Source: Escherichia coli
Lineage (GTDB): Bacteria > Pseudomonadota > Gammaproteobacteria > Enterobacterales > Enterobacteriaceae
NCBI RefSeq assembly: GCF_048403405.1
Contig: NZ_CP183129.1
Strand: one strand, 5' to 3'
DNA length: 64,000 bases
Within the stretch, counting starts at the first letter, position 1. Every line of letters begins with the position of its first letter. The notes beneath the pieces are model-generated. The model saw only the letters and a list, made by a program, of their open reading frames with translations, searched no databases and was not told where the DNA came from. Below are positions 3,147-35,107 of this stretch, one piece after another. A program made the position numbers and the translations under genes.

Positions 3147-3473
3147 TCAAATAAGTGGTTTGCTGCCTAATTTCATTTTCTGGCTACCAACACAAGTCAC
3201 ACCCATTTCACTACGTGGCTTGCTGTACCATGTGCGCTGATTCTTGCGATCAATACGTTGCAGGTTGCTTTCAATCTGTTCGTGGTATTCAGCCAGCACT
3301 GTAAGGTCTATAGGATTCAGTGCGCTTTCTACTCGTGATTTCGGTTTGCGATTCAGCGAGAGAATAGGGCGGTTAACTGGTTTTGCGCTTACCCCAACCA
3401 ACAGGGGATTTGCTGCTTTCCATTTAGCCTGTTTCTCTGCGCGACGTTCGCGGCGGCGTGTTTGTGCATCCAT
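3147..3473 (-). CDS. N: Antitermination protein N (lambda-type, 108 aa)
   Basis: MDAQTRRRERRAEKQA.WKAANPLLVGVSAKPVNRPILSLNRKPKSRVESALNPIDLTVLAEY... matches lambda N almost residue for residue (from memory); nutL lies upstream. Confidence 0.9.
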   Translation of the reverse strand: MDAQTRRRERRAEKQAKWKAANPLLVGVSAKPVNRPILSLNRKPKSRVESALNPIDLTVLAEYHEQIESNLQRIDRKNQRTWYSKPRSEMGVTCVGSQKMKLGSKPLI

Positions 3474-3702: not shown

Positions 3703-3743
3703 TCACCTTCATGGTGGTCAGTGCGTCCTGCTGATGTGCTTAG

Positions 3744-3804
3744 TATCACCGCCAGTGGTATTTATGTCAACACCGCCAGAGATAATTTATCACCGTAGAT
3801 GGTT
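3744..3804 (-). promoter_or_regulatory. oL1-oL2-oL3 operators with leftward promoter pL
   Basis: Three 17-bp cI operator sites TATCACCGCCAGTGGTA, CAACACCGCCAGAGATA, TATCACCGTAGATGGTT with lambda spacing. Confidence 0.8.
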
Positions 3805-3960
3805 ATTTGTATGTTTTTTATATAGATTTATTTTTTGCAGGGTTGTGTGGATTGGGAAGGTGATCGAGAGATCTGAATTGCGATGTTTAGTGAGTTGTAT
3901 CTATTAATTTTGAAATAAATACAATTGGTTATGCGTTTTTTGGGGGGGCGTTAGGCAAAG

Positions 3961-3986
3961 AAAACCCGGCGCTGAGGCCGGGTTAT
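3961..3986 (-). terminator. timm-like rho-independent terminator ending the cI operon
   Basis: Hairpin AACCCGGCctcaGCGCCGGGTT followed on the minus strand by TTTTCTTTG; same sequence as the lambda terminator after rexB (from memory). Confidence 0.7.
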
Positions 3987-4164: not shown

Positions 4165-4545
4165 TTAAGGCCATTGGGTTGGTGGAAGATCGTGGGTTTT
4201 TATCTGCGTATTTGCTTCCACACATTTATCATAGTCTAATTTCTCTACAGCAAGCAATAGTGATTCAGCATACATCAATCCTTGTTTGATGTTCATAACA
4301 TTTATGCTTGCACTTGCGGCATCCATATCCTTTGCTGTCTCTACCATGTGCTCAAAGCTTTGAGCAATAGAGTCAACACCGTTTTTCATCCTTGTAAACA
4401 CTAATTTTAGCTCATCAAGGCTTGGATTCGTTAGATCATACATCCCATGCATTCCATGGGCTTCGAATAACTCTGACAACGATCTAAGGGCGAAGTTCAC
4501 AGAATCAATAACTTGGTCGTACTTTTTCTTATCAAGATCATTCAT
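4165..4545 (-). CDS. 126-aa acidic protein of unknown function occupying the rexA/rexB position
   Basis: ORF track; starts 66 nt downstream of the cI stop on the same strand, AAGG SD about 11 nt upstream; no TM segment or motif recognised; visibly AT-richer than cI. Confidence 0.6.
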   Translation of the reverse strand: MNDLDKKKYDQVIDSVNFALRSLSELFEAHGMHGMYDLTNPSLDELKLVFTRMKNGVDSIAQSFEHMVETAKDMDAASASINVMNIKQGLMYAESLLLAVEKLDYDKCVEANTQIKTHDLPPTQWP

Positions 4546-4611: not shown

Positions 4612-5328
<717 letters not shown>

Positions 5329-5335
5329 TTAAATC

Positions 5336-5401
5336 TATCACCGCGAGGGATAAATATCTAACACCGTGCGTGTTGACTATTTTACCTCTAGCGGTGATAA
5401 T
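5336..5401. promoter_or_regulatory. OR3-OR2-OR1 operators with divergent promoters pRM and pR
   Basis: TATCACCGCGAGGGATA (5336..5352), TAACACCGTGCGTGTTG (5359..5375), TACCTCTAGCGGTGATA (5383..5399); pR -35 TTGACT and -10 GATAAT overlap OR2/OR1. Confidence 0.85.
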
Positions 5402-5416
5402 AGTTGCATGTACTAA

Positions 5417-5626
<210 letters not shown>

Positions 5627-5665: not shown

Positions 5666-5741
5666 ATTACCAGAAACAAATCTCTATGGTTTTGCGTTTC
5701 TTTGCGAAGCCAACTCTATCTAATCATTAAGGAAATTATCT

Positions 5742-6023
5742 ATGGGTACTATTGCAACTAAAAGCAAGAAAGCGGCTCGCATCGAGTCAGCCTTGCTGAA
5801 CAAACTGGCACTGATGGGGCAGAAGACATTCGCTCGAGCAATGGGGGTTCCTGAATATCAGGTAAGCAGATGGAAGAATGGTTTCTTCTCGCAGGTAAGC
5901 ATGATGCTGGCTGTTCTGGAATATGGAATCGAAGACGATGAAATGGCTGAATTGACTAAGCGGCTTGCCAATTACCTGACAAAAGAAAAAGCCCCGAAGA
6001 ACGGCGAATTCTTCGAGGCCTGA
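5742..6023 (+). CDS. cII: CII-like transcriptional activator (93 aa)
   Basis: [25 protein letters not shown]...QVSRWK...MLAVLEYG resembles lambda CII ([24 protein letters not shown]...QISRWK...LLAVLEWG) but is clearly divergent. Confidence 0.7.
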
Positions 6024-11891: not shown

Positions 11892-12076
11892 ACGCCACAA
11901 TTCAAACGATACCAGAGCTTCTTATCCAGACACGAGGCAATCAGACCGAAGTGGCAAGGATGCTTTCCTGCGCAAGAGGAACAGTGCTCAAGTACAACCG
12001 AGACAGCAAAGGCGAGCGTCACGTAATAGTTAACGGCGTCCTGATGGTCAAACAGGGCAAAAGGGGAAGGCCATGA
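11888..12076 (+). CDS. ninH: NinH-like protein (62 aa)
   Basis: GNQTEVARMLSCARGTVLKY...VNGVLMV resembles lambda NinH (GNQTEVARRLKCSRGTVRKY...VNDVLMV). Confidence 0.55.
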   Translation: MNATIQTIPELLIQTRGNQTEVARMLSCARGTVLKYNRDSKGERHVIVNGVLMVKQGKRGRP

Positions 12077-12696
12077 GACTCGAAAGCGTAGCTAAATTTC
12101 ATTCGCCAAAAAGCCCGATGATGAGCGACTCACCACGGGCTACGGCTTCTGACTCTCTTTCCGGTACTGATGTGATGGCTGCTATGGGGATGGCGCAATC
12201 ACAAGCCGGATTCGGAATGGCTGCATTCTGCGGTAAGCATGAACTCAGCCAGAACGACAAACAAAAGGCTATCAACTATCTGATGCAATTTGCACACAAG
12301 GTATCGGGGAAATACCGTGGCGTTGCAAAACTTGAAGGAAATACTAAGGCAAAGGTACTGCAAGTGCTCGCAACATTCGCTTATGCGGATTATTGCCGTA
12401 GTGCCGCGACGCCGGGCGCAAGATGCAGAGATTGCCACGGTACAGGCCGTGCGGTTGATATTGCCAAAACAGAGCAGTGGGGGAGAGTTGTCGAAAAAGA
12501 GTGCGGAAGATGCAAAGGCGTCGGCTATTCCAGGATGCCAGCAAGCGCCGCATATCGCGCTGTAACGATGCTAATCCCAAACCTTACCCAACCCACCTGG
12601 TCACGCACTGTTAAGCCGCTGTATGACGCTCTGGTGGTGCAATGCCACAAGGAAGAGTCAATCGCAGACAATATTTTGAATGCGGTCACACGTTAG
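12073..12696 (+). CDS. Q: Late antiterminator Q (lambda-type, 207 aa)
   Basis: Sequence MRLESVAKFHSPKSPMMSDSPRATASDSLSG...NILNAVTR equals lambda Q (from memory). Confidence 0.95.
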   Translation: MRLESVAKFHSPKSPMMSDSPRATASDSLSGTDVMAAMGMAQSQAGFGMAAFCGKHELSQNDKQKAINYLMQFAHKVSGKYRGVAKLEGNTKAKVLQVLATFAYADYCRSAATPGARCRDCHGTGRAVDIAKTEQWGRVVEKECGRCKGVGYSRMPASAAYRAVTMLIPNLTQPTWSRTVKPLYDALVVQCHKEESIADNILNAVTR

Positions 12697-12970: not shown

Positions 12971-13045
12971 GGGTCAGTCGTATAAAGGTCATTACGGAAG
13001 GCTGTTAACCTTCTTATCGTGGTTCGAGTCCACGCTGTCCCGCCA
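12971..13045 (+). tRNA. tRNA-like gene, anticodon GUU (Asn) by manual fold; one T:T mismatch in the acceptor stem
   Basis: Manual cloverleaf: acceptor GGGTCAG/CTGTCCC, anticodon stem GAAGG/CCTTC with loop CTGTTAA, T-arm CGTGG-TTCGAGT-CCACG, discriminator G, encoded CCA. Confidence 0.45.
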
Positions 13046-13050
13046 AATAT

Positions 13051-13126
13051 GCTGGTTTAGCTCCAATGGTAGAGCAGTCGCCTTGTAAGCGAATGGGTAG
13101 CGGTTCAAGTCCGTTAACCAGCACCA
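13051..13126 (+). tRNA. tRNA-like gene, anticodon UGU (Thr) by manual fold
   Basis: Acceptor GCTGGTT/AACCAGC (perfect), D-arm GCTC-CAATGGTA-GAGC, anticodon loop CTTGTAA, T-loop TTCAAGT, encoded CCA. Confidence 0.55.
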
Positions 13127-33713: not shown

Positions 33714-34907
33714 TCACTCCACCTTTTCATCAAGCCAGTCCGCCCACCACTGCATCATTTCTCTGCGCTTATCGAGATACTGAGCATGGTTGTAAATTCC
33801 ACGTACAGATCCGCCGTTGGCATGTGCCAGTTGCACTTCAATGGCGTCGGCAGGCCATTCGTGCTCGTTCATAATCGTGCTGAATTCATGCCTGAATCCG
33901 TGACCGCTTTCCAGACCTTCATAGCCGATTTGTTTGATCACAAGTAGCACCGCGTTCTCGCAGATTGGCTTCTTCTTATCGTTGCGCCCGGAAAAAACAA
34001 ACTCTGATACTGGTTTAGTGATTGAGCTTAGTGTAGTGAGAAGTTCAACCACCTGGTCTGACATCGGGACAACATGAATTTTGCGTCCCTTCATCACACT
34101 GGCGTCGATGGTGATAATCCTGTTTTCAAAATCGACGTTCTTCCATAGCATGGAACGAAGCTCTTTTGTTCTTAGGGCTGTGTAGCGTAAAACTTTGGTC
34201 GCAATGAGCGATACGATACTTCCTGAAAATGTTGCAAGTGCTTTGTTGAATGCCGAGATCTGGTCGGCAGGTAAAAACGGGAAGTTCTTCTTGCGGTATC
34301 CCTTCATGGCGTCAGCAAGGTCAGGTGCCGGGTTATATTTAGCCCTACCAGTGACAATAGCGTAACGGAAAACCTCGCCGCATCTTCTGCGGGCTTTGTT
34401 GGCTCGCTCCATTGCACCGCGATCTTCAAATCTGCGGATTACTTCCAGCAGTTGCATCGGCTCAATATCCTGAATTTCAAGGCCGCCGATGATAGGTAAA
34501 ATGTCGTCATCAAACATTTTTGCAAGTTCAGTTGCATAGCCTACTGACCAGACTTGCTTCTTGTGCTCGTACCATTCCTTGTAAATCGCACTAAAGGAAT
34601 TGTTGTTAGACGAAGCCTTTTTCGCTTTTACCGGATCGATGCCAACCGAGATGTCTTTCCTCGCGGTCCATGCCTTATCCCTTGCCTCCTGCAAAGTCAT
34701 AAGCGGATATTTTCCGACGGTCAGGATTTTCTCCTTACCGTCAATCTTGTAGCGAAGCTGCCATACCTTTTTCCCTGATACAGGGACATAAAGGTACAGG
34801 CCATTACCATCGAGTAGGCGGTATGGTTTTTCTTTCGGCTTTGCTGCTTCAATCTGCTTAACGGTGAGCATGGGTAAAAATCCGGTGGGTAAAATTATTT
34901 TATCCAC
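33714..34907 (-). CDS. intS: Tyrosine integrase, P4-family (IntS-like; 397 aa, or 385 aa from MLTVKQ at 34871)
   Basis: N-terminus MLTVKQIEAAKPKEKPYRLLDGNGLYLYV typical of P4/IntS-type integrases; C-terminal HxxR...Y catalytic region; adjacent to the tRNA-Arg 3' end and transcribed away from it. Confidence 0.9.
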   Translation of the reverse strand: MDKIILPTGFLPMLTVKQIEAAKPKEKPYRLLDGNGLYLYVPVSGKKVWQLRYKIDGKEKILTVGKYPLMTLQEARDKAWTARKDISVGIDPVKAKKASSNNNSFSAIYKEWYEHKKQVWSVGYATELAKMFDDDILPIIGGLEIQDIEPMQLLEVIRRFEDRGAMERANKARRRCGEVFRYAIVTGRAKYNPAPDLADAMKGYRKKNFPFLPADQISAFNKALATFSGSIVSLIATKVLRYTALRTKELRSMLWKNVDFENRIITIDASVMKGRKIHVVPMSDQVVELLTTLSSITKPVSEFVFSGRNDKKKPICENAVLLVIKQIGYEGLESGHGFRHEFSTIMNEHEWPADAIEVQLAHANGGSVRGIYNHAQYLDKRREMMQWWADWLDEKVE

Positions 34908-35032
34908 TTTTTACCCGTCATGGAGTGCGGCTGTCAACGATCTGACGCGAACCATTACGAACTGTTAATCTACGGAAGGCTTGATATTCAGGGGATTTTG
35001 CGGACTGGTGCGGATGGGAGCGAACTGATAAA

Positions 35033-35107
35033 TGGTGTCCCCTGCAGGAATCGAACCTGCAATTAGCCCTTAGGAGGAGCTCGTTATATCCATTTAACTA
35101 AGAGGAC
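35033..35107 (-). tRNA. argW: tRNA-Arg (anticodon CCU), argW; prophage attachment site
   Basis: Reverse complement reads GTCCTCTTAGTTAAATGGATATAACGAGCTCCTCCTAAGGGCTAATTGCAGGTTCGATTCCTGCAGGGGACACCA (75 nt, CCT anticodon loop, TTCGATT T-loop, CCA end). Confidence 0.85.

Follow-up and report, generated by a model that had tools for sequence, protein, structure and literature searches.

Single-base differences from phage λ in the operators of an Escherichia coli prophage: probable inherited alleles of a CL707-type immunity region

The stretch of DNA analysed here, a window of 64,000 nucleotides from Escherichia coli (assembly GCF_048403405.1, contig NZ_CP183129.1), holds a prophage in which three of the six operators of a λ-type immunity region depart from the λ sequence by one base each. 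These differences are very probably inherited natural alleles and not new mutations, and would represent near-neutral polymorphism in an apparently intact prophage whose immunity is of the CL707 type. Judging from the deposited sequences of wild λ-immunity phages, in which two of the three alleles are already found, the finding appears to be an ordinary one; it suggests no new mechanism and its value lies mainly in bookkeeping. The third allele, in OL3, is rare, and a functional shift is plausible at OL3 alone.

Both operator regions were aligned with the λ sequence J02459 and its annotated operators (Table 1). In the window, OR3 reads TATCACCGCgAGGGATA (also given as TATCACCGCGAGGGATA), OR1 reads TACCTCTaGCGGTGATA (also given as TACCTCTAGCGGTGATA) and OL3 reads TATCACCGtAGATGGTT (also given as TATCACCGTAGATGGTT). 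The original prediction of single-base deviations in OR1, OR3 and oL3 is borne out by this alignment: the λ sequences that it took as reference were correct, and the operators are not identical to the λ reference, all three differences being confirmed. Three further differences close to the operators had been missed, namely G→A at 5402, C→T at 3741 and C→T at 3807; in addition, a dinucleotide change from GA to AG at 3824-3825 corresponds to a common wild variant. The six sites show no insertions or deletions and keep the λ order and spacing; three are identical to their λ counterparts and the other three match them at 16 of 17 bases. Because of these 16/17 matches, the conserved order and spacing, and the flanking cI and cro genes (97.6% and 100% nucleotide identity to λ, respectively), chance matches are excluded and the sites are, on sequence grounds, true λ operators. 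Substitutions are not in excess in the operators over their surroundings. Operator divergence from λ amounts to 3/102 bases, as compared to 17/714 in cI (Fisher p = 0.73), and is below that of the third-codon positions of cI (14/238).

Table 1. Coordinates of the operators, promoters and genes discussed in the text (positions in the window; changes are relative to λ)
Feature	Position	Strand	Remarks
N antiterminator gene	3147..3473	-	108 aa; Pfam N36, E = 1.9e-25; 98-99% nucleotide identity to N regions of λ-immunity prophages
pL promoter	3742..3770	-	TTGACA, 17-bp spacer, GATACT; hexamers as in λ by promoter scan; positions per HK544/HK542 records
OL1	3744..3760		No difference from λ
OL2	3768..3784		No difference from λ
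OL3	3788..3804		C→T at 3796, central base pair (position 9); rare allele
A/T-rich segment right of OL3	3805..3840		Carries rare C→T at 3807 and wild GA→AG at 3824-3825
Timm-like intrinsic terminator of cI operon	3963..3984	-	Stem-loop as in λ (terminator scan); homologous site annotated Timm in EF1204xx records
126-aa ORF at rexAB position, downstream of cI	4165..4545	-	phrog_16322 (unknown function), E = 8e-89
cI repressor gene	4612..5325	-	237 aa; 17/714 nucleotide and 4/237 amino acid differences from λ
pRM promoter	5332..5360	-	-10 at 5332-5337, -35 at 5355-5360; positions transferred from annotated HK544
OR3	5336..5352		A→G at 5345, position 8 of non-consensus half; CL707-type allele
OR2	5359..5375		No difference from λ
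pR promoter	5373..5401	+	TTGACT, 17-bp spacer, GATAAT; promoter scan
OR1	5383..5399		G→A at 5390, position 8 of non-consensus half; majority wild allele
cro gene	5426..5626	+	201/201 nucleotides as in λ
cII-family gene	5742..6023	+	93 aa; Pfam Phage_CII, E = 7.6e-30; allele other than λ cII
Tyrosine integrase	33714-34907		Adjoins tRNA-Arg(CCT) (argW); region 33714-35107

The window has in common with λ (J02459: OL1-3, rexBA, cI, OR3-1, cro) the six 17-bp operators with their arrangement, the hexamers of pL, pR and pRM, and Timm. It differs from λ by the single bases in OR3, OR1 and OL3 and by the base at -6 of both pL and pR; furthermore, rexAB is replaced by the 126-aa ORF, cII and the replication genes belong to another type, and the virion genes are P22-like. 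Three hallmarks of the λ immunity group can be recognized in the sequence, namely a CI protein with an unchanged helix-turn-helix, an identical Cro, and tripartite OL and OR regions that overlap pL, pR and pRM.

How common the three alleles are was assessed in a published comparison set of eight λ-immunity phages (EF120455-61 and HK97), in IMG/VR and in 5426 complete E. coli genomes. The records EF120455-61, among them that of CL707 (EF120459), were reportedly deposited with the study of Degnan et al. (2007). The genomes were searched with allele-specific 38-mers such that the other allele is unable to seed a match; on the scale of this survey, λ-type OR occurs in 406 E. coli genomes and λ-type OL in 573. 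The A allele of OR1 is carried by HK97, HK542, HK244, CL707, mEp234 and mEp332, and G is seen only in λ and HK544 within the published set. In IMG/VR, where retrieval by pattern biases the counts inside each search pattern and each operator region was also sampled through the loci retrieved by the other region's pattern, OR1-A is found at 64/88 loci (73%); of the complete E. coli genomes, 176 have it. In the wild, A is the majority allele at OR1 and the G of laboratory λ the minority form. The G allele of OR3 is less common (3/88 IMG/VR loci and 11 E. coli genomes); CL707 has it in the published set, and it is also present in 13KWH46, QEC11-421, isolate 602 and no107. Finally, OL3-T was detected in 3 of the 5426 E. 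coli genomes, at none of 85 IMG/VR loci and on none of 21 metagenome contigs, and in no matched phage record (best match 97.7%). The T at 3807, likewise absent from the published phage set, was never seen apart from OL3-T, its carriers being the three E. coli genomes and the window. No paper was retrieved when the literature was searched in full text for the variant sequences of the three operators, with both strands as queries.

The operator positions that vary among the IMG/VR loci are almost all central: position 8 of the non-consensus half and the central pair. The position-8 G→A change found in OR1 recurs in OL1 (30/89 loci) and OL2 (3/89); the OR3 change, T→C when read on the strand of the non-consensus half, accounts for 3/88 loci; and a central-pair T→C change occurs in OR2 at 4/88. 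All three variants of the window fall in this class. Natural operator variation is thus largely confined to the centre of the site, where tolerance is to be expected from CI binding data.

For OR1, those data include the very substitution present in the window. In the systematic substitution data of Sarai and Takeda, as reproduced in Table 5 of PMC2194778, G10→A raises the free energy of CI binding to OR1 by +0.4 kcal/mol, with +0.2 for G10→C, +0.5 for G10→T and +1.1 for the central G11→A; changes in the consensus-half positions C12 to T15 cost +2.0 to +3.7 kcal/mol. The cost of the OR1 change is about twofold, and few of the substitutions tabulated for OR1 are milder. The notion that substitutions of this kind can change repressor affinity, which accompanied the original prediction, holds in principle on the strength of this measured value. 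Transferring the OR1 data to the other two operators under an assumption of additivity, we infer an effect of about -0.3 kcal/mol for the OR3 change (T→C in the OR1 orientation) and of about +1.1 kcal/mol for the OL3 change (central G→A). The opening part of a study on CI binding to related operators (PMC10742460) does not cover these variants.

The further suggestion that the changes are vir-like, that is, operator mutations by which a phage escapes λ-type repression, fared less well. Aside from the location of the changes inside operators, which is all that speaks for it, the evidence points the other way. The operators relevant to virulence (OR2 and OL1, as well as the critical positions of OR1) are unaltered, and so is OL2; the strong-effect mutations in OR1, OR2 and OL1 that characterize the vir type are absent, the changes occurring instead at positions of lowest information. 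The OR1 change costs 0.4 kcal/mol as against 2.5-3.7 at the critical positions and yields what is the majority allele in prophages, and both OR1-A and OR3-G (the latter in CL707) occur in phages deposited as λ-immunity phages. Moreover, the DNA is that of an integrated, resident prophage at argW, with an integrase and an intact cI gene. An escape from repression can be regarded as extremely improbable.

We favor the reading of natural and nearly neutral alleles. All three changes lie in the middle of the operators, where CI makes its weakest sequence-specific contacts. For this reason, repression of pR and pL by CI and Cro should persist, as should homoimmunity of the phage with λ. The switch would operate as in λ, CI repressing pR and pL from OR1/OR2 and OL1/OL2 while activating pRM, and Cro acting as it does in λ. 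The presence of OR1-A and OR3-G in phages deposited as λ-immunity phages likewise suggests that λ immunity is retained.

OL3 calls for separate consideration. With its C→T change, this operator acquires the central base that is natural to OR2. The predicted cost of +1.1 kcal/mol, falling on a site that is already weak, would not be negligible, because upon removal of OL3 cI transcription rises about 2.5-fold and the extent of OL-OR looping drops from 79% to 60% (PMC3708714). A mild weakening of the OL3-dependent negative autoregulation of cI is therefore possible; it would be modest at most, the figure of about 2.5-fold setting its upper bound. The rare allele could provide a natural test of how much the strength of OL3 matters for this autoregulation. 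Laboratory λ mutants OL3-4 and OR3-r1 are affected in the same operators, which cooperate over a 2.3-kb loop to repress pRM (PMC3708714). These mutations essentially abolish CI binding, unlike the window changes with their small predicted effects.

The idea of immunity tuning, also raised in the original prediction, could possibly apply to the rare OL3 change and to that change only. One could envision that C→T at 3796, with or without C→T at 3807, weakens CI binding at OL3 and makes the OL3-OR3 tetramer rarer; pRM would be less repressed at high CI levels, more CI would accumulate and induction would be reduced, the whole being an adaptive adjustment of the lysogenic set-point. The cost of the central-pair change in OR1 and the consequences of OL3 loss for cI mRNA and looping are in line with such a scenario, as is the persistence of the haplotype in four strains of different provenance and on three or more backbones. 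However, the variant has one evolutionary origin, so that selection and hitch-hiking are indistinguishable; its frequency is below 1%; in OR2, T is the natural base at this central position, and the reverse change is found in nature. With a single origin and so low a frequency, OL3-T is accounted for equally well by hitch-hiking, by slightly deleterious drift or by adaptation, and the rarity of OL3-T and 3807-T relative to the other alleles fits a mild deleterious effect as well as a recent origin. Adaptive tuning appears unlikely.

The C→T change at 3807 lies 11 bp, or one helical turn, from the OL3 change, within a conserved A/T-rich segment next to OL3. A scan for the IHF consensus around 3807 gave matches with two mismatches only; one weak λ match is lost in the window and is too weak to interpret. 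It is tempting to speculate that the 3796 and 3807 changes, both rare and helically phased, act together to retune OL3-OR3 looping or the upstream control of pL; we consider this unlikely. If looping were retuned, the haplotype would have a higher CI set-point and form a more stable lysogen than λ, making it a natural counterpart of the OL3-4 mutant.

The case for inheritance draws on the company that the alleles keep. The three genomes with OL3-T come from 13KWH46 (Hong Kong), QEC11-421 (China) and isolate 602 (Spain), and all three also carry OR3-G, OR1-A, 3807-T and the 126-aa ORF. Between 3647 and 5667, only two bases, 4917 and 5402, separate the window from QEC11-421 and isolate 602, and the flanks differ; past a point near 5667, the shared immunity haplotype is no longer matched at high identity. 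Overall, the immunity modules of the three prophages equal that of the window except for 2-3 bases. They depart from the window at pR -6, which is G, at CI residue 137, which is Ala, and in their flanking recombination, replication and (where fetched) structural modules. In particular, the 13KWH46 backbone combines a recombination module of the Rad52/ssb kind with heads of the P22 type, exo/bet/gam is found in QEC11-421 and isolate 602, and RecT occurs along with a toprim primase in the prophage of the window. By sequence comparison, then, at least three different prophage backbones harbor the OL3-T haplotype. We also considered whether the window might simply be identical to one of the three OL3-T genomes; differing flanks, the base at pR -6 and CI codon 137 rule this out. 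CL707 shares OR3-G, OR1-A and the pL -6 base with the window, and its cI gene is one nucleotide away, as is that of 13KWH46; unlike the window, it has the λ bases at 3796, 3807 and 5402 and a different, 302-aa gene downstream of cI. In the simplest history, OL3-T and 3807-T would have arisen once, within a CL707-type immunity haplotype carrying OR3-G, and the CL707-type OL3-T haplotype would then have moved by recombination into several lambdoid backbones, as is usual for these mosaic genomes.

These data also bear on a more trivial explanation, namely that the differences reflect the decay of a defective prophage or errors in sequencing. Every variant is shared with independent assemblies, and the cI, cro, N, cII, replication, lysis, head/tail and integrase ORFs are all full length. 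One might point out that the window does not reach the left end of the prophage; no positive evidence of decay or error was found, and we hold this explanation to be very improbable. The virion genes are P22-like and full length (terminase, portal, scaffold, capsid, gp4, gp10, ejection proteins and tailspike), the tailspike having the P22 head-binding domain. The chromosomal fadL-fadJ flank is 100% identical to that of several sequenced E. coli strains. As far as it extends in the window, the P22-like prophage at argW looks complete.

None of the variants alters a promoter core. On the positions transferred from HK544, the OR1, OR3 and OL3 changes are at -18 of pR, -20 of pRM (in the spacer) and -61 of pL, respectively, outside the hexamers; pRM is otherwise identical to λ, 5345 being its only difference. 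Scans of the window and of λ revealed no promoter or terminator created or destroyed by the variants, and pL, pR and Timm were unchanged. The differences at 3741 and 5402 affect the first base past the -10 hexamer, position -6, of pL and pR, respectively, and on the transcribed sense each places A in the window where λ has G. The same G→A change at -6 is therefore seen in both promoters (GATACT-A and GATAAT-A). In pL, A at -6 is a common wild allele (84/89 IMG/VR loci), and the position is changed in all members of the published set except λ and HK544, mEp332 having a different base there. In pR, A at -6 is found at 17/88 loci and is common to HK542, HK244, mEp332 and no107; the neighboring G→A change at -5 occurs at 15/88. 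Such changes in the discriminator region might affect the stability of the open complex.

The CI protein of the window is identical to that of λ at 233 of 237 residues. Its four differences (T3A, K71N, G125V and A137T, with Met as 1) are all outside the helix 2-3 region of the recognition helix-turn-helix, and the Ala-Gly cleavage site, the serine in GNSM and the lysine in FKKL are all present. The A137T replacement, due to G→A on the coding strand at 4917, is the sole coding difference from the cI genes of CL707, 13KWH46, QEC11-421 and isolate 602. The Thr3 of laboratory λ CI is found at 5/87 IMG/VR loci; together with the OR1 data, this makes textbook λ a carrier of minority alleles, at OR1 and at CI residue 3, among natural λ-immunity prophages. 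A coupling of T3A to the OR1 allele was considered and rejected, Ala3 being found with OR1-G at 19 loci and with OR1-A at 63.

The cro gene has no difference from λ in 201 nucleotides, next to a cI gene with 17 in 714, and the similarity to the shared haplotype stops before the non-λ cII gene. The contrast between cro and cI and the limit near 5667 point to recombination breakpoints inside the immunity region, as far as can be judged from such comparisons. At the other end of the repressor gene, the 126-aa ORF gave no match in Pfam or PADLOC; homologous coding sequences in 13KWH46, QEC11-421 and isolate 602 are annotated as hypothetical protein WP_021539111.1. Other λ-immunity phages have different cargo downstream of cI, including hicAB and a KilA-N protein, and the ORF is for this reason a candidate accessory or defence gene. 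Elsewhere in the prophage, a 207-aa ORF (12073-12696) is the counterpart of the PA45B prophage's late antiterminator, and downstream of it lie genes for tRNA-Asn and tRNA-Thr, at 12971-13126.
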